Source: an uncultured cyanobacterium (lineage in GTDB: Bacteria > Cyanobacteriota > Cyanobacteriia > CAKZMO01). From it: a DNA stretch of 64,000 nt. The notes under the pieces are model-generated. The model was given only the letters and a program-made list of their open reading frames with translations. It ran no database searches and was not told where the DNA came from. The stretch lies in NCBI GenBank assembly GCA_963719515.1, contig CAVRCJ010000011.1, positions 256,001 to 320,000 of the forward strand, written 5' to 3'. A program made the position numbers and the translations under genes. Every line of letters begins with the position of its first letter. Position 1 is the stretch's first letter. Positions 30,704 through 64,000 of the stretch are shown here, in pieces.

Positions 30704-32188
30704 TCAGCCGTCCAGCTTCTTTTTCAAAAGCTGATTCGTAAGCTTCGGGTCTGCTTTACCCCGAGACTGCTTCATCACCTGACCCACAAAGAAGCCCAGC
30801 AGCTTAGTTTTACCGCCGCGATACTTCTCTAGCTCGTCGGGGTGAGCGGCAATCACCTCATCGATGATAGGCTCGATGACGCCGGGGTCCGACACCTGCA
30901 CCAGACCTTTCTTCTCCACTAGGGCCTTGGGCGAACCCCCTTTTTCCAGCAGCTCAGGCAGGAGATCTTTCCCGATTTTGTTGCTAATCGTTCCTTGATC
31001 GATCAAGCCCACCAGCTCAGCCAGCCCCTCAGGAGTAAGCGCCAGCTCCTCCACGGCCTGCTTTGTCTTGTTGAGGTGTGCCCCAATATCTTGGGTAATC
31101 CAGTTGGCTACTAGCTTGGGGGTCCCTCCTGCTGCGACAGCAGCTTCAAAGTACTGCGCAATGGAGGCATCGTCTGTCAGCACCCGCGCATCGTAGGCCG
31201 ACAGGTCTAGCTCCCCTTCGTAGCGAAGTCGCTTTTGGGCAGGCAGCTCGGGCAGCTCCGATTTCCACTGGTCACGCTGAGCATCTGACACCTCAATTGG
31301 CCCCAGATCAGGTTCAGGGAAGTAGCGGTAGTCGCTCGCCCCTTCCTTCGTGCGCATCGTAGACGTCTGCTGCGAAGACTCATCCCACAGCCGCGTCTCC
31401 TGGATGATCTCTTCTCCGGCCTCCACCGCCGCAATCTGCCGCTCAATCTCGTAATCGATGGCGCGGGCGATCGCGTTGAAGGAGTTCATGTTTTTGATCT
31501 CCACCTTGGTGCCAAACTTCTCTCGGCCCACGGGACGCACGGAGATATTGACGTCGCAGCGCAGCGACCCCTCCTGCATGTTGCCGTCGCTCACCCCTAG
31601 GTAGCGCACGATGCGCCGCAGCTCCTGGGCGTATTCCGCCGCTTCTTCCCCAGAGCGGATGTCGGGCTCGGAGACGATTTCGACTAGGGGTACGCCTGCC
31701 CGGTTGTAGTCCACCAGGGAGAAGGTAGACCCCGCAAGGCGATCGCTGCCGCCATGGACTAGCTTGCCCGCGTCTTCCTCCATGTGCAGCCGGGTGATGC
31801 CGATGCGCTTACGCTTAGGACTACCGTCCTCGTCCATCAGCTCAATTTCTAGCCAGCCGTGCTCGGCGATGGGCAAGTCGTACTGGGAGATTTGATAGTT
31901 TTTAGGCAGGTCAGGGTAGAAGTACTGCTTGCGGTCAAACTTGCTGTAGGGGGCGATTTGACAGTTGAGCGCTAGCCCTGCCTTTACGGCGTATTCCAGC
32001 ACTTTTTCGTTGAGAACAGGCAGCACCCCGGGCAGCCCCATGCAGATGGGGTCGATGTTGGTGTTGGGGTCGGCCCCAAAATCGGTGGGGCTGGTGGAGA
32101 AAATTTTGGTTTGGGTGCTGAGCTGGCAGTGGGTCTCAAGACCAATGACGGCTTCGTACTCGGTTTTGGCAGGGGCAGCGGTGGTCAT
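30704..32188 (-). CDS. gatB: Asp/Glu-tRNA amidotransferase subunit B
   Basis: [39 protein letters not shown]. Confidence 0.97.
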
Positions 32189-32294
32189 AAGCGCGGCTCG
32201 GCTAACGTCGGCAGGGCCTCTATTATAGCCCGTTGCCGATAGAGATAATGCGAGCGGAGGCAGTCGTAAGAGGAAAGGCCTCTTTGCTTACCGC

Positions 32295-33269
32295 TCAGGT
32301 CTGAGTCGTTGCCGCTTTCGCCCCCGCCCCAGCTCGGGGCGCTTCCGCTCGCACCGCCCGAAACATCCCAAACCGACACAGCCCCGCACCAAACGCTAGC
32401 CGCATCAGCAGCAGCGTCGGCACCTCTCGCACCGACTTCAAAAAGCCGGTCACCCCGTAGCGTATCCAGCCCTGGGGCTTGATGATTCCCTGCCAAATCG
32501 TATCGAGCCAGGAGGGCAGCGTTTCAGCGGTCCAGTCGGCGGTCACCACCTCGCCTTCTACAAAACCCGTCTCCTCCAGGCGTTCCGCAAACCCCTCAAT
32601 GCTCGAGAATGCCGGGTGCGCCCACTGGTCCAGCAGCTGCCGCATCACCGGGCGCTCCCACCCATTCAGCGGCACCTGGCGATCGTCCCGCTGGTTCCAA
32701 TCCGCCACTACCAGCACCCCGCCTGGCTTCAGCACCCGCAGCAGCTCTCGGGCAAACAGGGCCTTATCCGGCATGTGCGGCCCCGCCTCCACAGACCACA
32801 CCACATCAAAGCTGGCGTCAGGAAACGACAGCGCCATGGCGTCGTCCACCGCAAACCGCGCCGTCACCCCCTCTGGCGTTAGCGCCTGGGCTCGGCTCAC
32901 CTGGCGAGGGCTGATGGTAATGCCCGTTGCGTCAAAGCCATATTGCGCCAGGATACGGGTGCTGCCGCCAATGCCGCAGCCCACGTCTAGCAGGGTTTTT
33001 CCAGAAGGTAGCTTATCCAAACCGCCCCAGCGCACCATCTCATGGACAAAGTCAGACTTGGCCTTAAGGAAGTCTTTTTGGCGCGGCGGTGAGCCGTAAT
33101 GCCCCAGGTGAATATGCTCTCCCCAATAAAACTCGAGAATGCCGTCATCAGTCCACTGGTCGTAAGAAGCCGCCACCGTGTCGGAAGACTGGTAGCGACG
33201 GGCGGTGATCAAGTAGAGGGCGATGCCAGCGGCAGGGAGGCCAAGAAGGAGGGCTAAAACGAGGCTCAT
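32295..33269 (-). CDS. SAM-dependent methyltransferase, MPBQ/MSBQ (tocopherol/plastoquinone) type
   Basis: GILEFYWGEHIHLGHYG, LDVGCGIGGS, WSVEAGPHMPDK. Confidence 0.85.
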   Translation of the reverse strand: MSLVLALLLGLPAAGIALYLITARRYQSSDTVAASYDQWTDDGILEFYWGEHIHLGHYGSPPRQKDFLKAKSDFVHEMVRWGGLDKLPSGKTLLDVGCGIGGSTRILAQYGFDATGITISPRQVSRAQALTPEGVTARFAVDDAMALSFPDASFDVVWSVEAGPHMPDKALFARELLRVLKPGGVLVVADWNQRDDRQVPLNGWERPVMRQLLDQWAHPAFSSIEGFAERLEETGFVEGEVVTADWTAETLPSWLDTIWQGIIKPQGWIRYGVTGFLKSVREVPTLLLMRLAFGAGLCRFGMFRAVRAEAPRAGAGAKAATTQT

Positions 33270-33434
33270 TGCGGTGCTGCTTTAATATTTCTTGATAATG
33301 CTGTTTATTATTGTGGAAGCTGACCCAGACTTTAGCAAGGACAAATCTAGTCGCTATTGAGCCGAGCTGGCACCGCAGCCCACTCGTCTTCTAAGATTCA
33401 GTCAGGCCAATCCAGCAGCTAACCCCTTATCCTA

Positions 33435-33818
33435 GAGAACGGAGAGAGGAGGCGAGGTGGTTGCGGGCCGTCAGGCCTGAGGAAAGTCCGGGCTCCCCAA
33501 AGATCAGACTTGCTGGGTAACGCCCAGTGCGGGTGACCGTGAGGAGAGTGCCACAGAAACATACCGCCAGCGGGAGGCATGAGGATACGTCCTTTTGCCT
33601 TTGCGGGTAAGGGTGCAAGGGTGCGGTAAGAGCGCACCAGCAGCATCGAGAGGTGCTGGCTCGGTAAACCCCGGTCGGGTGCAAGGTCAAGGAACTACGG
33701 TTGGTCTTTTACCAGTTCCACTCTTGAGAACCGCTTGAGGCGTGCGGTAACGCATGTCCCAGATAGATAACCGCCCTCCGTTAGGAGAACAGAACCCGGC
33801 TTATGTCCTCCTCCCTCT
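33435..33818 (+). ncRNA. rnpB: RNase P RNA (type A)
   Basis: GAGGAAAGTCCGGGC, AGTGCCACAGAAA, GGTAAACCCC, AGAACCCGGCTTA conserved blocks; ends approximate. Confidence 0.96.
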
Positions 33819-33939
33819 ATATCTTTGACATACGGTTTTTCCGAAGTAGTGCAATGTGCGACTCATTTTGACCGCGAATGATGCCCGCAAGCTTCAGCTG
33901 TGGGCACTGATGGGTCACGTTGAGAATTCCTGTGACTGC

Positions 33940-34361
33940 GTGACATACTCCCGACGCTCATTCTACGAATAGAGCGCGGGCTTCTTGGCTCGCGCACCAC
34001 AAATGAATGGGTGCCGCACAAGAAAGTTTCCTGCTTCTCCTGGTCTTGTCTAGCCAAACAGCAAGCTGTATGACCCCGATTAGATCCCATCCACAGGCAA
34101 TTTATTTTACGTCTAGGCAATGACCAACCCCAGACAGACTACTTTTTTGAGCTTCCTTTCTTCCAAAAACTGTGTCGCGTCACCGTTATGTTTTCTATGG
34201 GTGATATTTTTCTCGACGAACACTTTGGAGGGGTGGAAAACCTTGCAAACAGTTGATATGTATACATTCTAGCATGAATAAGGATTGTTCGCCTTTGGCT
34301 CACGCGCCTTTCATCCCGACGCTGATGCTGCGCATACAGCGCGGGACTTCCCGTCTAAGAG
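33940..34361 (-). mobile_element. Non-autonomous IS200/IS605 mini-element 1 (left end, promoter, omegaRNA-like right end; no protein)
   Basis: Right end GAAG-hairpin-GTCAC; left-end hairpin after TTAA; 198-bp block and left hairpin shared with 36215-36663. Confidence 0.78.
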
Positions 34362-34401
34362 TTAAACCAGGGCTCTACGCGGCACCTTTAGGCTCTATTC
34401 A

Positions 34402-35767
34402 TTGACGCTCTCCATCTGACCCTACGGGTACAGATGGAGATTCCTAGATTGCAGGGGAGGTAACCCTTAACCCCTAGCTAGGCATCTCCACGGCGCGTCC
34501 CGCCGCTGTACATCCACGCTGCATGATTACCTGAGCAGCGGCTACATCGCGATTTGTTGTGTAACCGCACTCAGGGCAGCTATGCAGACGCTCCGATAGT
34601 GGTTTTTAACCCGTTACTGTCTGACAGCTCGGGCAGGTCTGACTTGTTAGGTTGGCATCCACTTCGGCATAGAAAACACCGCGTTTCCAGCACACCCACT
34701 TAAGGATGCGAAGAAACTCGCCATGGGCTGCATCTAAGGTGTGCTTCGAGAACATGCCCCTAGCCCACACCTTGAAGTTCAGCTTTTCAGCAAACACCAT
34801 CCCAACGCCATCACACAACCGATGCGCCAGTTTGTAAAACCAATCTTGGCGACGATTGCGAATATGCTCATGCAATAGTGCAACTTTTTTGTGTGCTTTG
34901 TACCAGTTATTCGATCCTTTGACTTTGTGACTTGCTCGTTGTTGCAGCAATTTCAGCTTGCGTTGGAGATTCACAAAGAACTTAGGGGACTTGACTAACT
35001 CACCGTCAGAAGTTGCAAGATAGCTCTCTAACCCGACATCAATACCGACTGCTCTGCCGTACGGCTGCACTTCGGGTACTTCGGCATCAGACTGAAAGGT
35101 GAGCATCACATACCAGCCTGACGCTTTCCTGAGTACTTGAGCTTGCTTTAGTTGAAAGCCATCTGGAATAGGACGCGATAGTCTCATTCTCACCTATCCA
35201 ACACCCGGCAATTTAATGCGATTACTCTGAATAGGATTAACGCCGAGCTGGGGAATAGCAACGACCTCATTCGACCTTGCTTCTTGAACCGAGGGAAGCC
35301 GTGGTTCTGCTCCCACATTGAAACAAACGCTTTTTCCAGACGCCTCAACGCCTGTTGGAGCATCTGAGCGTTGGCCGCTTTTAGCTCAGAGATTTTCTTA
35401 CGAGCTTGAGTTAGAGCTTTGCACTGACTAGCAAACGTGGGTCTAGACGTATCGACGGGAATAATGTACTCACCCCGCAACGAGCAACTATCTATTTTGC
35501 ACGACCTGGAGCGGTACCAATCTTTGCGCTCAGCCAAAGCATAGTTCCACACTCCACGAGAGGCTTCTAACCACTGCTCGTAAAGCTGAATCTGCTCTTT
35601 GTTGGGGCGAAGTCGATATTGGTACATCAGGTTTAACATAGATATATCATAGCAAATCTAAAAATAGGTATGGCGCTTTTTAGATATTGTTCGCCTGTGG
35701 CTCACGGACTTGCTTCATCACCCCCCAACCGCTACGCGGTATAGGCGGAGCACTGCAAGTCATATGG
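34402..35767 (-). mobile_element. IS200/IS605 family element, tnpB-only (IS1341-like), decayed
   Basis: Right end GAAT-hairpin-GTCAA at 34402; left-end hairpin at about 35715-35750 following CTAC; contains a tnpB pseudogene. Confidence 0.85.
34474..35639 (-). pseudogene. tnpB: RNA-guided endonuclease TnpB pseudogene
   Basis: YQYRLRP HTH, GFPRFK, GIDVG, FAEKL, TSQTCPSC..CPECG..RDVAAA; frameshift at about 35250, in-frame stops at 35194 and 34606. Confidence 0.9.
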
Positions 35768-35891
35768 GTAGGATCTAAAAGAAATTTAAGTTTTGGTTAC
35801 ACCGCATCCCCGCTCACGCGTCGTATACGCAAGCAGGTGTGCAAAATATATGGAACCCATACTTCACAGGAGGGCGGACTTTTGAAGTCTA

Positions 35892-35964
<73 letters not shown>

Positions 35965-36214
35965 AAACGCACAGCATAGGCTGTATCAGCGCGGTACTCT
36001 ATACTAGCAGAACTCGTAGCTCTCTAGACCGTCACCGAGACTAGATTAACTTTTTTTGGGCGGCGACCAGCAGATATCGCAGCGATAGGCAAGCTGAGAA
36101 TACTCTTGCTGGGCCAAGTCGGCGTTGGTCATCATTTTGTACAGAGAGCCCTCTCCTGCACGGAGGTTGTTGGATTGGCCATATAGCCCCGTAGCCAGAT
36201 GCAGTCTTGGGAAA

Positions 36215-36663
36215 GTGACATACTCCCGACGCTCATCTTTTAGATAGAGCGCGGGCTTCTTGGCTCACGCACCACAATTTAATGGATGCCGCGCAAGAAG
36301 GTGTCCTGCTTCATCTGGTCCTGTCTAGTTACGCAGCAAGCCGTGCAACCCCGATTAGATCCCATCGACAGGCGATTTGTTTAATGTCCAGGCAATGACC
36401 AACCCCAGACAGTGACGAGTATTCAATTTCCAGCTACGTTTTCTACCGTCTGCACTGTTCACCAGCCAAGGGCTGTACGTTTGTGTCACGATAGCAGGCC
36501 GCCGCCATGAAATAGTTTGAGCTTGGTTCAATTGTACCCTTTGCTCGCCTCGGCGCTGCCCTTAATTGCCGCCTTCGGCATCCAGTCAAGGGCGCACCTC
36601 GACTCGCTCGCTTACATCCCGACGCTGATGCTGCGCATACAGCACGGGGCTTTCACGAACTAG
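36215..36663 (-). mobile_element. Non-autonomous IS200/IS605 mini-element 2
   Basis: Same right end/omegaRNA-like block and left-end hairpin as element 1; different middle; follows TTAG. Confidence 0.78.
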
Positions 36664-36829
36664 CTAACCTCACCGCCAGCGCTACAGTTGCAAAAGGGGC
36701 TGCATCGTTTTTTAGGGTTCCTCGCTCTTGCACGCTGTGCGCAAAAGCGAGGCAAGGCTTTACTAGGCGACTTACCGGAGACAGTGCTACTCCAGCTCTC
36801 TGAAATCTACATTAAGCCAAAACTTTTTT

Positions 36830-37468
36830 ATGCCCTCCGGCCACACCCACGATCGCATTACCCTTTGGAGCCTACCGGCTGTGGCAGCAGCGAGCCTGTG
36901 GGCCACCCGCAGCAGCAGCCTCACCCTGGCGATCGCGGGCGGCTTTTTGTTTGGGGGCTTGATGCTGGGGCCAGACCTCGACACCCGCTCCATTCACCAT
37001 CGCCGCTGGGGGGCGCTGCGGTGGATTTGGGTGCCCTATCGGAACAGCATCTCTCACCGATCGCCCCTGTCCCACGGACCGGTAATCGGCACCACCATTC
37101 GCGTCATTTACCTGCTGGTGGTGGCGGGGCTAGTCATTACGGCTGTTCTAGCTGCCGCCAACGAAGTTTTGCGCCTGGGCTGGACCTGGATGGCTTTTGG
37201 GCGCGTGATGTCCACAGGCCTAGTGAGCTATCGCCCCACCCTGATTGCCCTTGCTGTGGGCCTCGAGGTGGGAGCTTTGGGCCACTACACCGCAGACTGG
37301 GCGCTCTCTAGCTATAAGCGAGTGCGCAAGCAGTATCCCACCTTGGGGTGGCGGGCGCTGCTAATTCCCTTTAAGCCCTCAAAGCCCTCAAAGCCCTCAA
37401 AGCCCAAGTCTGCTAAGCGGCGCTCCGCTACAGCTTCCAAAAAACCGCGAGCCCGCAGGCGGCGCTAA
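36830..37468 (+). CDS. DUF2227 family putative metal-binding membrane protein
   Basis: MPSGHTHDRITL, GPDLD, HRSPLSHGP; KPS x3 repeat in a basic tail. Confidence 0.88.
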   Translation: MPSGHTHDRITLWSLPAVAAASLWATRSSSLTLAIAGGFLFGGLMLGPDLDTRSIHHRRWGALRWIWVPYRNSISHRSPLSHGPVIGTTIRVIYLLVVAGLVITAVLAAANEVLRLGWTWMAFGRVMSTGLVSYRPTLIALAVGLEVGALGHYTADWALSSYKRVRKQYPTLGWRALLIPFKPSKPSKPSKPKSAKRRSATASKKPRARRRR

Positions 37469-55615: not shown

Positions 55616-56551
55616 CGGTAGGGGGTAGGCGATCGCTTGAGTCGTTGTAATCACGTTGCACTGTCAAGCTTCACTACTGGGATCACAAGTGTGGCGATCG
55701 CCGCTTTATGTGAGATAGGTGACTCTTTACATGAGGCGGCTGGCCTCTCAGGTGTGGCTGGCCTCGCTTTGTGTGTTGCTGCTGTCATTTCAATCGTGGG
55801 CGATCGCATGTCAGGTGTCATGGTTGATGCTTTGGGTGGCGCTGCTCTCATCTGGCGTCTCGTCGGACTCGCGTTTTGTGTCGTTGGTGAGGGTTTAGGT
55901 GTGGGCGATGTCTTCCAGGCGGACTTGAAGTATCGTTGGTCGCCGTTTGAGCGGCGTCTGTGATAGTTCAGACAGCAATTGCGATCGCCGTTGAATCATA
56001 GCGTTGCACCTTTACGTTATTTGAGGATAAGCACCTCGTGCTCAATACACCCGCAGGCAAGAACCGAAGTGTTGAGAAGGCGTAAAGGGCACGAAGCATG
56101 TGATCGCAGAGGCTATATGTGACGGCATTACCGCAATGCCTGTACTAATCAAGCGCACTGGCAAAAGCAATCGTGCTTTGATGGAGGGCACACTGTGAGG
56201 GCGATCACTCCGTAACAAAGTACACTTGCCTATCATTAATCTGACAGCGACAAAATAAGGGCAACTCCCATAGGGCTTCAAAATGTCCCCACCTGACACG
56301 GTCAGCACCCAATTCACCAGTACTTCTGATGATCAAACAGAGCTAGAAAATGGCAAAAGTGTATTTTTAAGTGAGATAACTGCCTTCCGTAAGAATAAGA
56401 TAGGCAAATTACGTGCCATAAATCACTGGTGGAACATCACCTTTACCGTAGCTGGCATTACTTTCACACTCTTAGTGACCGTGCTCGGCATCGTTGATAC
56501 AGATAACAATGCCACTTTAAAGAATTGGGTTAAACTTGGCATTGGTTTGTC

Positions 56552-58162
56552 GTAACCGTCCCTGGAGGATGGTTCTAAGCCGCCAGCGCAGGATTCACCA
56601 GTAGCGGCTTATCGTCAGGGCGAGGGTTGTCATCTGGAATCAGCGGCAGTAATGAAGGCGGTGCTAATCCTCCTCTTGCCGCCCGGCAAGCTTGTGTGAG
56701 GAACTCGAGCAGGCTACGCTGCTGCGCTTTTAACGAAGCACTCACCGTCAGCATCCTGGCCACGAACTCGCTACCCGCTTGCGACTGCGAGCCAAAGCTG
56801 GTGCGCCGCCAGATTACTGCTGGTCTCAATGCTCGCTCTGCTGCATTGTTGGTCGGCTCGACGCCAACGGTGGTGACAAAAGTCCACAAAGCAGGCTCCA
56901 CTTTGAGCAGCATGCGGCAGGTGCGCACGGTTTTGGCGAGCGGCGTCTTCTCGCCTTGGGCAATCGGCAGGGCCGCAGCAGCTTCTAGCTCCGCTTTGAA
57001 GCCTGCACGCAAGTGTCTGACATGGAGAGCAAACTGCTCTCTGGTGAGGGTGCCATCACGCACCCGATGCCACCAGCGGAACAAGCGCCGCTCTCGCCTC
57101 AGCAGCGCTTCGCCAATCTCCTTCGACGCGCCGCTGCGCTGGGCTATCGCCGTCAAGTCTCGTTTAAGATGTGCCCAGCACACCTGCCATTGGTCTAGTG
57201 CTAGCCACTGGTAGGCGCTGTAGCGGTCTGAGATAACGATGCCCTTGAAGTTCTCCCCGATGTGGGCTTTTGCTGTCCCCTTCGAGCGAGAGAGCGCTAT
57301 CTCGAAGATGCTCACTAGAGGAGTGGCCAACACCCACAGCCAGCCTTTGCTCTTCTGGGCATTCTGGCCATCCCGATTCCCCTGAGTGAAGCTGGTCTCG
57401 TCACTATTGACCACAGGCTGAGATTGCACATAGCGTTTTGCTTCGGTGACCGCCCCGCTTACCGCTGTACTCATCTCCTGGCGCATCCGCCCCACCCCAC
57501 CTCGCGATAGCCTAACGCCAAACAGTTCTTCCATCAGCGCGCATACTTGCCGGTGGCTCTGACGGTAGGGTCCGCTCAAGAGCCCGACGATAGCCGTTAG
57601 CCGCTCCCCATACCCCGATGCAGCCACCCCTTGCGGTAGCGCTGCCCTCGTCACACCCCCGCAGTGCTCGCAGCTGAGCTTGTGCAGTTGGTACTCCACT
57701 ACCTCTGGTAATACGGGCGGCACTTCTATCACCTGATGCCGCTCAGGGCGCTTCTCCTCTCCCCGAAGCCCTTCCCCGCAAAAACCACACACCTCCGGCT
57801 TCACCTGATGCACCGCGCTGCAAGCCTCTGGAGGATACAGCTTGCGCACTCGCCGAGCCGCTTTGGGCGTCCCCTCGCGCTTGGGCGCTCTGCCCTTCTT
57901 CTTTTCCTTTATTTGCTTGCCAAACCCATCCGAGGAGGGCGGCCTAGACGAATTCTGCGAGTTCTGCTTGATCTGCTCTTCCAATGCTGCCAATCGCTCA
58001 CTGAGTACCGTCACCAGCAGTCGCATACTGGCAGGGCTGGCCTCCCAGTCGCTTTTCGGAATCTTGACCCCGGCGATCTCAATGTCTTCACTCATGTCGC
58101 CAATTTACCTGAGTGCGATCCCGGCAATGCCTAAGCCTTCCTTAAATCTCTGGGACGGTTAC
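56552..58162 (-). mobile_element. IS66 family insertion sequence (single-ORF type), 1611 bp
   Basis: TIR GTAACCGTCCC / GGGACGGTTAC; 8-bp TSD GGTTTGTC at 56544-56551 and 58163-58170. Confidence 0.95.
56575..58095 (-). CDS. IS66 family transposase
   Basis: NSQNSSRPPSSD, CxxC zinc finger, SDETS, SDRYSAY, CWAHLKR, PTNNAAERALR. Confidence 0.95.
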   Translation of the reverse strand: MSEDIEIAGVKIPKSDWEASPASMRLLVTVLSERLAALEEQIKQNSQNSSRPPSSDGFGKQIKEKKKGRAPKREGTPKAARRVRKLYPPEACSAVHQVKPEVCGFCGEGLRGEEKRPERHQVIEVPPVLPEVVEYQLHKLSCEHCGGVTRAALPQGVAASGYGERLTAIVGLLSGPYRQSHRQVCALMEELFGVRLSRGGVGRMRQEMSTAVSGAVTEAKRYVQSQPVVNSDETSFTQGNRDGQNAQKSKGWLWVLATPLVSIFEIALSRSKGTAKAHIGENFKGIVISDRYSAYQWLALDQWQVCWAHLKRDLTAIAQRSGASKEIGEALLRRERRLFRWWHRVRDGTLTREQFALHVRHLRAGFKAELEAAAALPIAQGEKTPLAKTVRTCRMLLKVEPALWTFVTTVGVEPTNNAAERALRPAVIWRRTSFGSQSQAGSEFVARMLTVSASLKAQQRSLLEFLTQACRAARGGLAPPSLLPLIPDDNPRPDDKPLLVNPALAA

Positions 58163-58534
58163 GGTTTGTCAGGCGCTGCTGCAGTGGCATCACAGTCGGC
58201 AAATAGCGAGTTCCGCGTGCGTAACAAGGCCAGGGAATACACTAGGGTTGAGGCACAGGCATGGATTCTAGAGCACAAGGTTCGCCGTGCGAAGGCTGCT
58301 GCTGATCTTGAAGAGTGCCATGAAGAGTTCTATAGATTAGTAAATAACACAGCTAAAGCGGAAATAGCCTGTGATGAAGATGGAATCTCTTCATAAGTCA
58401 TGCATTCTTGAGAATCATTTAGAGAGATGTAGACTATTTTGAGCAACTTGAGTGAAAAGGCTTCTAATATCGGAACCTCTTATCTTTTTGTTAAGCCAAA
58501 CGATCGAGATTGACTTCAGGAGTCTACAGCTATC

Positions 58535-59893
58535 ATGAGTGATTTTGAGCCTAAAGAGAAGGCTTACGTGGCATTTCAGGGCGGCGGAGCATTGGGAGTA
58601 GCGCACTTTGGTGCTTGGCAAGCCATATCCGAAAATTTCGAGATTGTTGGTGTTGCAGGAACGTCATCTGGATCAATTGTTGCCGCCCTATGCGCTGCAG
58701 GCTTTTCTGCTGAAGAAGCATTTGAAAGATTTCAAATTGGGTTGCATGAATTTGTAGAGCATAAGAATCCAACTTGCTCAGCTCTCAACATTGCATTACG
58801 GATGCTGCTTGGTCTAGATTCTTCTAGCGACGGCCATAGATTTCAAAATTGGCTAGAGGATCAATTAGAGGATTCTCCATTAGGCAAGCGCAAAGTCAAA
58901 TTTAGAGAATTCAAAGATGAGTCGAAGCCTTATATTGAAATCATTGCCTGTGATTTGAACAATCCTAATGAGCCTGTAAAATTCTCGCCTTATAAAAGCG
59001 ACTGGAACACTCTGTCCGATGCTGTTCGAGCCTCCATCTCTCTACCCGGCTTTTTTGGCATTCAGCGGCTAGGAAATCGAGCGCTTATTGATGGCGGCTT
59101 TATATGCAACTTTCCTATGGAGTCAATTTACAAGCGGGCAGCTCAAGAGGACTGTGCACTTATAGGTGTGCGCTTTAAAAAAGAGAAACGCTCATCCAAT
59201 TGGTTTAACTTGCGGCATGTTTTTTCAAGAAGCTATGAAGTATTAATGGCCAATAGCAGCCAAGTATCGGAGGAGATTAGAAGCTATTCAAAGCATGCAA
59301 TTATTGAGATTGACGATTTAGGTTTTAATCCATTAGACTTTAACTTAAGTCAAAAAAAGACTTGCTGCCTAAAGTCGGTGGGCGAAGATGCCGCAAGAGA
59401 GCAATTGACCAAACTCCAAGACCGGCTTGACCATATAAAGCTTCAGTTGCTGGCCCAACTTTCTCCTGGCGAGCGTGCGGCTGTTATACAAGCGCAGCAG
59501 TGGTTCACGAATACTGCAATACCGGAACGCGAAAAATACTATACTGATATACTAAACTCTAATCAGCTCCACAGCTTACGGTTGACTGATCGAGATAAAG
59601 ATGATTTTGATTGGGAGATCAGGAAATATTTGATGCGAATATCTGAATCCTTGATCGACCTGAAAAGCCTTAATATTGTCGCGGAAGAATCTTCTTTACC
59701 TTCGCTTGAAACGATAGGCATTAGCATTAAGAATCATAAGACGATTTCGCCATCTATTCGCAGCCAGAAAATATATGATGTGGTATTTGATTCGATCAAA
59801 GAAGATATTCCTGACTATCTAGGTTTCAAAGACCATATTGTAGAGCGCTTAGAGTACTTACAAAGGGCAATCGGTAGATGCCTTAAACCTTGA
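58535..59893 (+). CDS. Patatin-like phospholipase with uncharacterised C-terminal domain
   Basis: FQGGGALG, GTSSG (GxSxG), VRASISLPGFF, IDGG; about 155 extra C-terminal residues; AT-rich. Confidence 0.9.
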   Translation: MSDFEPKEKAYVAFQGGGALGVAHFGAWQAISENFEIVGVAGTSSGSIVAALCAAGFSAEEAFERFQIGLHEFVEHKNPTCSALNIALRMLLGLDSSSDGHRFQNWLEDQLEDSPLGKRKVKFREFKDESKPYIEIIACDLNNPNEPVKFSPYKSDWNTLSDAVRASISLPGFFGIQRLGNRALIDGGFICNFPMESIYKRAAQEDCALIGVRFKKEKRSSNWFNLRHVFSRSYEVLMANSSQVSEEIRSYSKHAIIEIDDLGFNPLDFNLSQKKTCCLKSVGEDAAREQLTKLQDRLDHIKLQLLAQLSPGERAAVIQAQQWFTNTAIPEREKYYTDILNSNQLHSLRLTDRDKDDFDWEIRKYLMRISESLIDLKSLNIVAEESSLPSLETIGISIKNHKTISPSIRSQKIYDVVFDSIKEDIPDYLGFKDHIVERLEYLQRAIGRCLKP

Positions 59894-59901
59894 AGAAAAG
59901 C

Positions 59902-60150
59902 TTAGCTTGAGCTTAGGTCTTCAATTTTAACCTTTAGTGTGTGCAATTGACTAACCCGATGATAGAGAAGACTTCCTTTCCCCTCTTGCTCTAGCAAGTC
60001 AATATTGATACCCAAGCCTCGTAGATCATCCATTGTCTGCTCAACTGCCAAAAACAGTGCAGTCCTTAGCTCAGAAGGATCAACTTGCATAATTTCATCA
60101 TAGGATAGGTTACAGAGATGATGAATATCATTTGGAGACAGTCGTGCCAT
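59902..60150 (-). CDS. Hypothetical 82-aa protein convergent with patatin
   Basis: ATG-initiated ORF in AT-rich DNA with helical composition; no motif recognised. Confidence 0.55.
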   Translation of the reverse strand: MARLSPNDIHHLCNLSYDEIMQVDPSELRTALFLAVEQTMDDLRGLGINIDLLEQEGKGSLLYHRVSQLHTLKVKIEDLSSS

Positions 60151-60303
60151 AAGTACAAAGCAGTAGTTTCTTAACTACTGCTTTATTCGAGACCCGTGAC
60201 GCTAATCCGGAGCAATAGTTTTCCCGGAATATAAAAACAAGCTTCTCCTTCTCTTGAGCGAGCTATTTCTGATATTTTTCACGATCTGACTTGTGCTTTC
60301 CTA

Positions 60304-61506
60304 GTACTTAGCCACAGTGATTACGACGGGTCATGGTTTGGGTAGAGACGAGCCAGCTTGGTTCTGGCATCAAAAACCGAAAAGCGCCAATCAACGGTGG
60401 CCTTGGACTGGTTGCGTTGCTCCTCCCAAGCAGCGGTTTGCTCAGTCAGCTCCTCAATGGAAGGGATGCGGCGATTCAAGCACTGCCTTGAGAGGACCGA
60501 AAACTCCAGCTCGACCATGTTCAGCCAACTCCCATGCTTTGGGGTGTAGTGAAACTCGAGACGTTCGAGAATTCTCAAAGCCTCATCAGGCGCAAAACTT
60601 TTGTAGAGCGAAGCGGGGGAGTGGGTGTTGAGGTTGTCGAGCACAACATGCACCAGATGGGCTTCGGGAAAAAGAACGTCAACCAGATACTGCATGCACA
60701 TAGCGAAGTCGTAGCCAGTGCGCTGCTCGGTGACCTTGAGGTGACGCCAGCTCGCTAGCGGCTGAAAGAAGCCGAACAGATTGCAGGTGCCCTCGCGCTG
60801 GTATTCATAGTCGTAGCGTTGCGGGTGACCAGGCGCACATGGCAGCGGAGTGCGCGTTTCGCTAATCAGCTGGCAAGGACGCTCATCGAAGCAGACCACC
60901 GGCTCTATCGGGTCGTAGGGCCGAGCATAGAGCTCTAGGACATTCTCCATCCGCCAGATAAAGTCGGCTCCCACGCTCGGGAAACACCACTGCTCCTTCA
61001 GCCAAGGCTTGAGCTGGTTTGCTTTAAGGTCCGTCTGACCGTCTCATCTGAGATACTCTCGACCACCTGTATCTCCACCAGCCGGTCGGCCAAAAGTTGC
61101 ATGGTCCACTCATTGCGACCCTCGGGCGGCTCGCTGCAGGCCGTTGCCACCAGAAATGCCTCAGCTTTGCCATCGAGCTTGCGGCGGCCACCTGGCCTAG
61201 GACGCTCGCTCAGCGCGAAGTCAACCCCACCTTCAACAAACTTCTGACGAGTCCGATGCACTGTGGAGACGCTGCTGTGCAGCATCTGGGCGATCGTCTC
61301 ATCGGCTTGGTCTTCGTTGGCCAGCAGTAGAATCTGAGCTCGTTTCATCTTGCGGGCCGCAAGTTGACCACGGCGTGTCAGTTGCTCAAGTTCGTTTTGC
61401 TCTTCTGGTGTTAGCGCTACCTTGTATTTGTGGGCCATTGGACCGATAACTATGGGACAAAATGATTCTCCCATAGAGGCCTGTCATATCTTGTGTGGTG
61501 GAGTAC
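60304..61506 (-). mobile_element. IS630 family insertion sequence
   Basis: Ends TA|GTACTTAGCCACA... and ...TGTGGTGGAGTAC|TA (imperfect TIR, TA duplication). Confidence 0.9.
60321..61438 (-). CDS. IS630 transposase in two ORFs joined by a -1 frameshift (about 61020)
   Basis: OrfA HTH (RAQILLLA, PPEGRNEWT, SDETVRRTLK); OrfB DDE (CFDE, VLDNLNTH, TPKHGSWLNMVE). Confidence 0.88.
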
Positions 61507-61834
61507 TAGCCTCCGTATGTGGCCCTCAAGGTGCTCCTTTTGCAAAAATAGCCTCTTGTGTTCGCTCTGTAGATTTTAGACTGAGATTGACTGAAGCCGC
61601 TTTCTCAATTTCATAAGTATCTCTAAATAGGCTGCGCATACCATTCATAGTTTACTTGTGCTATTCGAACGATACGAACAGTTTTGATAATTTGCTGAAA
61701 TAAACTTTTGAGATTTCTCTTGCCTGCTTATGGAGTAGCTGAATTCTGAATTCAAAATCCTAGCTGAGGGCAAATCCCCCATAACTGAACGACATATTTA
61801 TTCTGATAAGCTCTAATGGGTATCAGAGCCTGTA

Positions 61835-62692
61835 GTGCTGAGCTCTAGAACCTCAAAAGTTACCAACCCCAACTCCCCAGTACAGCTGTGGAACCTGCTC
61901 AACGGCCAGCCCAGCCGTCCCATCGGCCACTGGAAGCTGGGCCGCTTCAGCCGCCTCGCCCTCAGCCCCGACGGCAAACTCCTCGCCATCGGCGGCACCG
62001 TCATCGAGCTGTGGAACCTGAAAACCGGAGAATGCCTAGGTGAACTCGGCAGCCTCTTCGGCCACCGCGACATGTCTGCCCTCGCCATTAGCCCCGACAA
62101 CACCATGCTGGCTAGCACCAGCCTCGGCGAAAGCCCCTTCAACCTGTTCGACTACAGCATTCGCCTCTGGGATCTGACGGGTCTAGGTTCTCCCCCTTGG
62201 CATTCGCGCAGCGTGTCCGAAGGACGTAGGGGAGCTAGAGGGGGTCCACTCCACACTCTCAAAAGCCACCCCGCCCGCGTCCGCGCGCTCACCTTCACCA
62301 CCGACGGCCAAACCCTGCTCAGCGCCAGCCAAGACGGCACCCTCAAATCCTGGAACCCCCAGACCGGAACCCCAAAAACCACCCTCAACCAGCCCGGTGT
62401 TCTCCGCGCTATGGCTCTCAGCCCCGACGGCCAAGTCGCCACAGGCCGCCCCGATTCCGCTACAGGCCCGTCGAATGGCCCTGTAAACGCCATAGCCTTT
62501 AGCCCAAACGGCCAATACCTCGCCACCGCCCAAGGCAGCACACTCACCGTCACCGACGCCGAAGGCAGCTCAACTTCCCTCACCGAGCACCGCGCCAAAA
62601 TTCGCGCGATCGCCTTCAGCTCCGACAGCCAACACCTTGCTAGCGGCGATGCCAGCGGCAATGTCCGGCTGTGGCGATTCGATCGCGAGTGA
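61835..62692 (+). CDS. WD40 repeat protein, probably N-terminally truncated
   Basis: Repeated ALSPDG..LAS...IRLWD units; begins mid-repeat at a GC discontinuity. Confidence 0.7.
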   Translation: MLSSRTSKVTNPNSPVQLWNLLNGQPSRPIGHWKLGRFSRLALSPDGKLLAIGGTVIELWNLKTGECLGELGSLFGHRDMSALAISPDNTMLASTSLGESPFNLFDYSIRLWDLTGLGSPPWHSRSVSEGRRGARGGPLHTLKSHPARVRALTFTTDGQTLLSASQDGTLKSWNPQTGTPKTTLNQPGVLRAMALSPDGQVATGRPDSATGPSNGPVNAIAFSPNGQYLATAQGSTLTVTDAEGSSTSLTEHRAKIRAIAFSSDSQHLASGDASGNVRLWRFDRE

Positions 62693-62784: not shown

Positions 62785-63069
62785 ATGACCCCACAACTTC
62801 AAGCCGCCATAACTGCCATCCAACCCCTGTCTCAAAAAGAGCGACAGCAGCTTCTGCAACTCCTCGTTCACGATGCAGCTCCCCAAGGTAATCTTGAAAT
62901 TCTCAATATGCAGTTTTGGCAGGGCTTCACGCTGGAGCAGTTGACGGCACAAAGCTCTCCTACCGCTATGAAAGACCTTGGAGATTTTGCTGTTGATTTT
63001 TGGCCTGAAGACGAATCTGTAGAAGACTTCCTTGCTTTTCTTCGACAGCAACGACAAGAGGCAGCTTAA
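62785..63069 (+). CDS. Putative antitoxin of type II TA pair
   Basis: 94-aa ORF with acidic FWPEDESVEDFLAFL tail directly upstream of a PIN gene. Confidence 0.7.
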   Translation: MTPQLQAAITAIQPLSQKERQQLLQLLVHDAAPQGNLEILNMQFWQGFTLEQLTAQSSPTAMKDLGDFAVDFWPEDESVEDFLAFLRQQRQEAA

Positions 63070-63075
63070 TCCGCC

Positions 63076-63477
63076 GTGGCCATAGTTCTTATTGATACCG
63101 ATGTTGCCTCCTTTCTCTTCAAAGGCAGCAATTACGCCGAGCCATACATCCCATTACTGGACGATAACAAGTTAGCGCTGTCGTTCATGAGCATTGCTGA
63201 GCTATTTCAGTGGGCGATGGTGCAGCAGTGGGGCGATCGCCGTCTTACCCAGCTAGAAGAATCTTTCGGTAATTACATCACCATCCCAGTTGATCACCTC
63301 CTTTGCAAAAGCTGGGCGCAGGTTCGCGCTAGTCGAAAACGGACTGGTCGGCCCATTTCTCCTCAAGATGCTTGGATAGCAGCAACAGCCCTACGCTATG
63401 ATCTGCCGCTGATTACCCATAATGCAAAAGATTCTATAGGTACTCTAAACCTACGGCTGATGGCCCCTGAGGCTTAA
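63076..63477 (+). CDS. vapC: VapC-like PIN domain toxin
   Basis: LIDTDVAS, SIAEL, DAWIAATAL, THNAKD. Confidence 0.88.
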   Translation: MAIVLIDTDVASFLFKGSNYAEPYIPLLDDNKLALSFMSIAELFQWAMVQQWGDRRLTQLEESFGNYITIPVDHLLCKSWAQVRASRKRTGRPISPQDAWIAATALRYDLPLITHNAKDSIGTLNLRLMAPEA

Positions 63478-63676
63478 AAGCGTTATCAACGTCTTGCATT
63501 GCGGCTCAGCTCTCCACGGTTGCGATCGCCCCTCAAATGCTGTAATCTCATCTCGGCGCTCGGACGCAAGCGCGCCCCGGTTGTGTTATCCCCACAGCCG
63601 AGACGCTAACCCCGCGCTCTGACATCGGCAGAAGCGAAGGCTACCGCCTAGTGTATGGCTTCCATGCACCTCCTTG

Positions 63677-63800
63677 TTGACGTACTCCCCGCCCTGAAGA
63701 GCGAGGATTCCGGGATACCGGCGTAGAATGCAGGCAAGCCTGTCTTACACCGTAGGGGCATGGCAGCGCCATGATACGTGTCTAACGTCCTGGAAGGCCC
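63677..63800 (-). mobile_element. Orphan IS200/IS605 right end (omegaRNA-like remnant)
   Basis: Minus strand GAATCCTCGCTCTTCAGGGCGGGGAGTACGTCAA. Confidence 0.65.
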
Positions 63801-63940
63801 CCATCCCTAACCCTTCCCCCGATTCCGAGGGAAGAGAACCAAACTCCCCTCTCCCAGCGTTGATACCACTGGCGAAATATTTCGTAATCGAGCTGTACGC
63901 CTTCGAGGCCCCCTAACCCCCAATTCTGGGGGAACCGGAG
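63797..63940. repeat. Cyanobacterial C/G-rich palindromic intergenic repeats
   Basis: CCCTAACCCTTCCCCC..GAGGGAAG..CCCCTCTCCC and CCCCCTAACCCCCAATTCTGGGGGAAC. Confidence 0.55.
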
Positions 63941-64000
63941 CAGTGGCCATACTATTCGCGGCTATTGACTTTAAGGAGTTCTAACCTCTCTGAAGTCCCC

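Follow-up and report, generated by a model that had tools for sequence, protein, structure and literature searches.

A phycocyanin-derived, pigment-less domain fused to a patatin lipase and to other conflict-type heads in cyanobacteria: a candidate guard of the phycobilisome

What could sense infection in a compact cyanobacterial gene cluster that encodes a patatin lipase and none of the sensor genes that usually accompany such effectors? This question is raised by a foreign-looking island near the right end of a 64,000-nucleotide stretch of an uncultured cyanobacterium of the lineage CAKZMO01 (assembly GCA_963719515.1, contig CAVRCJ010000011.1, positions 256,001 to 320,000), the whole of which we call the window. 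The initial annotation, made from the sequence alone, proposed there a module of three proteins, namely a SLATT-like protein with two transmembrane (2TM) segments, a patatin fusion and an orphan protein of 82 amino acids (aa), with either the patatin C-terminal domain or the 2TM protein as the sensor. The three genes are real and the module is larger, since a fourth small gene had been missed; the patatin C-terminal domain, whose origin had not been recognised, derives on profile, fold and tree evidence from the alpha subunit of phycocyanin and has lost the chromophore cysteine, and it is the best candidate for the sensor. The genes, open reading frames (ORFs) and insertion sequences (IS) of the module are as follows.

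56283..56551, + strand: 5' part of the 2TM (SLATT-like) gene, cut by IS66; the read-through is 51-60% identical to the intact genes at loci L002 and L024-L027
56552..58162, - strand: IS66 element, with its transposase at 56575-58095 and an 8-bp target duplication (56544-56551 / 58163-58170)
58171..58396, + strand: 3' part of the 2TM (SLATT-like) gene, continuing after IS66
58535..59425, + strand: patatin phospholipase domain (residues 1-297), catalytic motifs intact
59426..59893, + strand: C-terminal globin domain of the patatin (residues 298-452), phycocyanin-alpha-derived, with the chromophore Cys replaced by Phe
59902..60150, - strand: ORF3, an 82-aa helical protein, predicted binder of the phycocyanin-like domain
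60263..60304, - strand: 3' part of ORF4, a small coiled-coil gene of 48 codons in total, cut by IS630
60305..61509, - strand: IS630 element, between duplicated CTAG sites (60301, 61506)
61510..61614, - strand: 5' part of ORF4, whose codon 13 (61576-61578) is an in-frame stop; profile match E 0.0018 genome-wide

The assignment of the C-terminal domain starts from a profile built from 21 such domains, whose best match among PDB sequences was phycocyanin alpha (E 1.1e-5), with phycocyanin and phycoerythrin chains filling 15 of the 20 rows at E up to 10; in addition, of the 8 phycobiliproteins that the genome encodes, CpcA scores best against the domain. Pfam gives no direct match for the window's copy, 4 of the 21 members match PF00502 below its cut-off, and two further proteins found with the profile pass that cut-off and so form a transitive bridge to the phycobiliproteins. 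When the domain was folded (predicted local distance difference test score, pLDDT, 88.5), its top 8 structure matches were all phycobiliproteins (Z 10.4-11.4; best root-mean-square deviation, rmsd, 3.1 over 124 aligned residues), with other globins following from Z 10.1 down, and since these Z values are modest for helical folds, it is the sequence link that carries the assignment. Foldseek gave no match at E < 0.001 for the isolated domain, though phycobiliproteins dominate its list, and the ESM Atlas returned no usable match for the domain or for ORF3. The alignment begins on CpcA at residue 38 by sequence and at 21-46 by structure, the N-terminal X helix being absent, and no beta-subunit gene lies alongside the domain at the module loci.

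Might such a domain still hold a pigment? On an alternative view it would bind a bilin or tetrapyrrole non-covalently and so inform the fused enzyme of the state of photosynthesis, for which GUN4 offers a precedent, this role being proposed for its fusions to kinases, caspases, trypsin and TIR in a passage of PMC7159879, and the position of the bilin-binding Asp87 is indeed acidic in 31 of 41 domains. The rest of the site speaks otherwise: the chromophore Cys84 is kept in none of the 41, with a bulky Phe in its place in 35, Arg86 is kept in 2, and the helix F region is shortened with respect to phycocyanin. As this alternative also leaves the convergent partner genes described below unaccounted for, we regard it as improbable.

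The domain is not confined to patatins. A widened profile run over 401 genomes matched in 159 of them, mostly on ordinary phycobiliproteins, and returned, besides the patatins, 20 loci with fusions or solo forms and 8 with CpcA, together with a few further long-frame hits without a locus. The heads that precede the domain are TIR (6 loci), EAD10 (7 loci, L122 by near-identity to L121), trypsin with Trypco1, CHAT and PNP, and there are also a weak helix-turn-helix head, two transmembrane heads assigned by eye and one solo form; a word search for stand-alone short forms of the domain found none, and for longer fusions it found patatins only, the others having come from the genome search. A tree of 65 rows, from which L122 was omitted, groups the 40 fusion domains in one clade (100/96); where allophycocyanin and the beta chains split off (100/99), this clade attaches to the side of CpcA, and branches are long. 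The heads have thus been swapped on one shared domain. Swappable TIR, trypsin, PNP and EAD-type heads are described as heads of conflict systems in the relevant passages of Kaur et al. 2020 (PMC7159879), and a constant domain on which TIR, protease, nucleosidase, lipase and EAD10 heads replace one another follows that conflict-protein pattern, so that the family probably plays a role in biological conflict; it is from this set of heads that we infer a role of the module in defence. The EAD10 fusions, which carry no enzyme, and the one of them that lies between EAD10-NACHT-HEAT genes, fit a sensing role of the domain.

Three of the loci show further features in their surroundings. At L144:1514-9923 (G203) two EAD10-NACHT-HEAT genes flank the EAD10-phycocyanin-like fusion, and one of them carries PBS-lyase-type HEAT repeats, a class related to the phycobiliprotein-binding lyases. 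At L138:5319-11999 (G018) the CHAT fusion is found immediately upstream of genes for a DrmD-like helicase and a type IIG restriction-methyltransferase. At L104:1408-2312 (G590:C90) a 206-aa protein carries, before an antitoxin-like tail, a domain that matches PF00502 at E 8e-17 and lacks the chromophore Cys, and it overlaps a short PIN-like gene in a toxin-antitoxin cluster (tail and PIN both called by eye); it may be an antitoxin degradable by NblA, the phycobilisome-degrading factor.

What, then, might keep the lipase silent? Facing the patatin, with 8 bp between it and the patatin stop, lies ORF3, and when ORF3 was co-folded with the window's domain the score was 0.77, against 0.00 for the best control; the co-folding mark is reached by 116 of 157 solved pairs and 2 of 215 mismatched pairs, a calibration that is rough here, given our own alignments. 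At least 87% of the contacts agree among runs, with a partner pLDDT of at least 80. ORF3 is therefore predicted to bind the phycocyanin-like domain, its modelled contacts falling on a single face of helix E, at CpcA positions 86-101 in the PDB-profile alignment, and on the 17-residue insertion that follows. This face of helix E we take to be the one that receives the X-Y hairpin of the beta subunit in phycocyanin. The phycocyanin alpha-beta pair requires X-Y and Asp13, according to the part of PMC4553884 that deals with it.

Small genes of this kind follow the fusion well beyond the patatins, with a convergent pair of 44-63-aa genes at 13 of 21 loci (about 10 of them independent), a single gene at 3 and none at 5, one of these being truncated at the edge of its contig. 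At the fusion loci 8 of 183 small ORFs reach at least 8 bits with the ORF4 profile, vs. 0 of 1701 in 75 control loci, and the proximal and distal small genes look paralogous (96.8%, to be read with the caution due to coiled coils). The 82-aa ORF is thus no orphan, as had first been thought, being conserved at the module loci and having a predicted binding partner. We rejected ORF3 and ORF4 as homologues of NblA (PF04485), the hhalign probability being below 0.3% for all four small-protein groups, and ORF3 as a phycobiliprotein fragment, with a sequence probability of just 1%; a PDB search with ORF3 matched only a designed helical repeat, and phage genomes held no match to ORF3 or to the domain.

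A partner that is predicted to bind the domain and follows it from head to head would also suit an abortive module of the toxin-antitoxin type, in which the domain serves only for unstable small inhibitors to dock on, and infection or stress, by halting the synthesis of these, frees the effector without any involvement of NblA. The strong divergence of the domain from phycocyanin, with Arg93 kept in 1 of 41, would agree with it, as would the domain on the antitoxin-like protein of G590 (its tail, again, called by eye). It gives no reason for the recruitment of an antenna subunit and its retention through many head swaps, the enzyme-less EAD10 adaptors included, and its inhibitors would be encoded on the opposite strand, unlike those of most type II pairs; we therefore consider it rather unlikely.

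The cassette as a whole is conserved where it occurs. A 22-sequence patatin alignment (21 of 58 hits used; a self-like hit, a partial one and fusions left out) was scanned against genome and metagenome collections and gave 46 loci, six of which, L002 (Microcoleus sp. FACHB-1515), L005 and L024-L027, have a full-length patatin. A 2TM homologue lies upstream at five of these six with 51-60% identity (at L027 with a deacetylase gene between it and the patatin), a convergent ORF3 at all six (L024 by direct tblastn, 41%; the others by position and alignment, 18-24%), and ORF4 (47-51 aa) at five, the contig of L005 ending too soon to tell. The four-gene layout is kept entire at five of the six, and so the co-occurrence by which the initial annotation had proposed to judge itself is found for the 2TM gene, the patatin and the small ORF. 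None of the 40 other loci, whose patatins lack the C-terminal domain, has a 2TM, ORF3 or ORF4 partner by profiles built from the positive loci. In every pair and for all four genes the nonsynonymous proportion is below the synonymous one (pN < pS), with a rate ratio dN/dS of 0.04-0.50 where not saturated, and the cassette genes are under purifying selection. Their spread is rare and patchy: counting this genome, the patatin occurs in 1 of 61 genomes, the 2TM family in 7 of 401 and the domain profile in 3 of 401. The window copy is probably inactive, because two of its four genes are interrupted, the 2TM gene by IS66 and ORF4 by a stop and IS630.

Why should a phycocyanin subunit be built into such a protein? 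NblA passes phycobiliproteins on to ClpC, and among its binding sites on the alpha and beta subunits is the N-terminus of beta, as summarised in a section of the review PMC7966870, and cyanophages encode an active NblA that directs phycobilisome degradation (passages of PMC12695635 and PMC11477984), an antenna degradation that helps the phage according to the former. Taken together with the conflict-type heads, these actions of NblA and its presence in cyanophages lead us to a guard as the reading that we tentatively favour, somewhat short of an even chance: the cassette would be an anti-phage guard whose lipase is held off by its small partners until these are disturbed by phage NblA or another factor that degrades phycobilisomes. 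ORF3 and ORF4 would be the inhibitors, capping the decoy domain and silencing the lipase, and the domain with its small partners would mimic the phycocyanin alpha/beta pair; NblA-ClpC would strip or degrade the partners and free the lipase, which, aided by the SLATT-like membrane protein, would destroy membranes and so abort the infection. A fuller version, that pigment-less alpha domains of a single clade, with small proteins as caps in place of the beta N-terminal hairpin, fire on cyanophage NblA attack, we hold a little more doubtfully still.

Several observations weigh against a guard of this kind. Solved phycobiliproteins share only some 10-17% of their residues with the domain, which may therefore no longer be recognised as phycocyanin; ORF3 and ORF4 have no profile likeness to NblA or to phycobiliproteins; and the tightest modelled contacts of ORF3 involve the insertion, which just 4 of the 21 patatin domains possess. 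PADLOC matches are not enriched near the fusions, with 10 of 81 proteins (6 of 10 loci) vs. 17 of 94 (6 of 9 control loci), in a small sample with 9 arbitrary control loci from the same genomes and promiscuous models, and at L005 the patatin and ORF3 adjoin housekeeping genes, with no 2TM gene within 1.8 kb upstream. Host NblA rises under nitrogen starvation, and its gene is present in this genome and in 38 of 41 genomes searched; the bait would therefore have to ignore host NblA to avoid misfiring.

This same prevalence of host NblA, and the lack of enrichment of defence neighbours, would suit a stress module outside defence, in which host NblA or free phycobiliprotein subunits activate the lipase for membrane remodelling or cell death in chlorosis. 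We find it very improbable, given the very patchy spread, the IS damage here, the mobile neighbours (a coupling protein and an integrase) and the TIR, EAD10 and PNP heads, which point to conflict.

As to the effector itself, the 452-aa patatin bears out what had been read from its sequence, with a clear PF01734 match (E 2e-25, 90.6 bits vs. a cut-off of 27.7) and the motifs GGG, GxSxG and DGG (the first annotated as GGGxxG) intact at residues 16, 42 and 186 and invariant in 22 sequences. Its fold is close to PlpD (Z 28.0, rmsd 2.7, 245 residues aligned) and near CapE and CapV (Z 26.5 and 24.9), the lipases of the cyclic-oligonucleotide-based antiphage signalling system (CBASS). It would then be possible, as first suggested, that the patatin acts like CapV, with the 2TM protein or an outside nucleotide signal as the sensor, the more so as SLATT proteins are predicted nucleotide-responsive pores in a passage of PMC7159879. 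However, the CBASS lipase model NF041079 gives 20.8 bits against a cut-off of 200; cyclase, SLOG and NTPase genes are lacking inside the module at the loci examined, as had been claimed for this one; and the 2TM homologue is absent from the examined stretches of the 20 other fusion loci, which leaves this explanation the least probable of those weighed here. For the cyclase in particular, neither the window region nor the neighbourhoods scanned at L002, L005, L025 and L027 contain a CD-NTase gene, L024 and L026 being short contigs that limit such scans. PADLOC found no full system in the module, as had been expected, and only weak phospholipase matches (E 1e-7 to 8e-6). Viral contigs held no relative of the patatin or the 2TM protein, and plasmids no full-length patatin. 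Sister patatins with the same N-terminal domain (L003, L004, L006-L009, L011, L012) are fused to AAA_35, EAD7-like or TIR domains, often with a second AAA_35 gene after them.

The 2TM gene, read across IS66, has 164 codons with one stop and ends 138 bp before the patatin start, in the same orientation, just as the removal of IS66 had suggested. Its first membrane segment is clearly hydrophobic (peak 2.1) and the second weakly so (0.9), and therefore only the former of the two claimed segments stands firmly. The SLATT label comes through relatives: four of the five intact homologues match SLATT_5 of Pfam at E 0.001-0.05, below its cut-off, and a relative, P0086, passes that cut-off (39.1 vs. 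29.5), which links the 2TM family to SLATT, as far as such profile matches reach. Neither a SMODS nor a SLOG gene lies beside it in the window region or at the scanned module loci, and PADLOC gave one weak SduA match on a 2TM fragment. Being confined to the patatin sub-lineage, the 2TM protein is unlikely to be the sensor. A close homologue occurs without a patatin at L056:7327-14046 (G222), where it precedes PLD-like, UvrD and PD-(D/E)XK genes. As for the IS66 that splits the gene, an identical second copy is present on contig C8 of this genome, metagenome contigs begin or end at its boundaries with different flanks, and no allele free of it was seen in four DNA sequencing runs, which mostly contain IS66; no RNA run with the locus was listed. 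The C8 copy (G000:C8:24214-30065) adjoins a further IS66-like ORF, and also next to it is the gene for a protein of 351 aa that matches PF00502 weakly and is missed by the domain profile.

How far is all this from known systems? With CapV/CapE of CBASS (NF041079; PDB 8zr9, 9iom) the module shares the patatin fold, the intact glycine-rich loop and the catalytic Ser and Asp of a plausible membrane-destroying effector, but it lies far below the family cut-off, has no cyclase gene and carries the phycocyanin-like domain and small partner genes. With CpcA (PF00502) the fusion domain shares the globin-type phycobiliprotein fold, the best sequence match and its side of the tree; it differs in lacking the chromophore Cys and the X helix, in its shortened helix F region, in being fused to enzymes or adaptors, and in having no beta-subunit gene beside it. 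The modular conflict systems of Kaur et al. (PMC7159879, GUN4 fusions included), as far as the passages cited describe them, offer TIR, trypsin with Trypco1, PNP, caspase-like and EAD10 parts and a SLATT neighbour, whereas here there is no MoxR-vWA or NTPase core and the constant part is the phycocyanin-derived domain with two small convergent genes. SLATT 2TM effectors (PF18160, PF18181, PF14015) have a helix, two membrane segments and C-terminal helices, a plan that the 2TM protein may share, with weak Pfam matches over the right region; the intact homologues here stay below the cut-off, and the partner is a patatin fusion instead of SMODS or SLOG. The integrated decoys of plant nucleotide-binding leucine-rich repeat (NLR) receptors also build a copy of the pathogen's target into an immune protein; this one would be bacterial, effector-fused and served by separate small partners, if a decoy it is. 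Full-text literature searches, subscription journals lying outside their coverage, found no description of the family or of a host counter-measure to cyanophage NblA. The words 'phyco' and 'patatin' are absent from the main text of PMC7159879, whose domain tables, outside this check, may list the domain under another name, and PMC8195603 has no such term in its text, the supplements examined giving only organism names and unrelated patatin neighbours. The family is real and conserved, and apparently undescribed, with a function that we infer.

Whatever the trigger, an unannotated cyanobacterial domain family with at least 8 architectures and two small partner proteins comes to light, in which a light-harvesting protein would be reused as a regulatory module. 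If the guard reading is true, an immune family with lipase, TIR, protease, nucleosidase and NLR-adaptor outputs would here be guarding photosynthesis itself, and it would be a candidate host counter-measure to cyanophage NblA. It is directly testable: Microcoleus sp. FACHB-1515 carries an intact cassette at L002:3540-5958, and an nblA-deleted cyanophage has been described.

The setting of the island agrees with the earlier description in most respects. HIP1 (GCGATCGC) occurs 81 times in the window vs. a chance mean of 1.8, which together with the host phycobiliprotein genes of the genome marks the window as cyanobacterial, and the gap without HIP1, placed earlier at about 55990-62600, spans 55988-62606 (6.6 kb) and is among the 4 longest of the genome's 7716 gaps. 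The island had been called AT-rich, which is so for its non-IS DNA, with a guanine-plus-cytosine (GC) content of 40-45% vs. 61% in the left flank; it does not apply to IS66 (59%) and IS630 (56%), which take up 2.8 kb of the gap, nor to the WD40 fragment, which at 63% is host-like. A promoter scan gave 14 weak sites, none decisive. The convergent 82-aa ORF, IS630, the WD40 fragment and the PIN gene are all where they had been described, and the WD40 gene forms the right flank, outside the module:

61863..62692, + strand: WD40 gene with its 5' end missing, 77-88% identical to a longer WD40 gene in the congener G001

The WD40 and VapBC genes had been listed as following the other genes of the island, and we rejected both as members of the module, as no homologue of either occurs at the other module loci. 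At the same site the congener (L164:1153-6626, G001:C335) has an MNT-HEPN pair, a Uma2 gene, a NACHT-HEAT-TIR gene and then the full-length WD40 gene, with VapBC absent; since G001 holds different cargo before a complete WD40 gene, the site swaps its cargo, the WD40 gene of the window being a clipped flank. To its right, at 62785-63477, an intact antitoxin-like gene and a PIN toxin form an insertion separate from the module. Short repeats with copies on many contigs are found at 62186-62249, in-frame within the WD40 gene, and at 63674-64000, and another gap without HIP1, of 5.2 kb, at 31739-36929 of the window, is probably a second foreign island.

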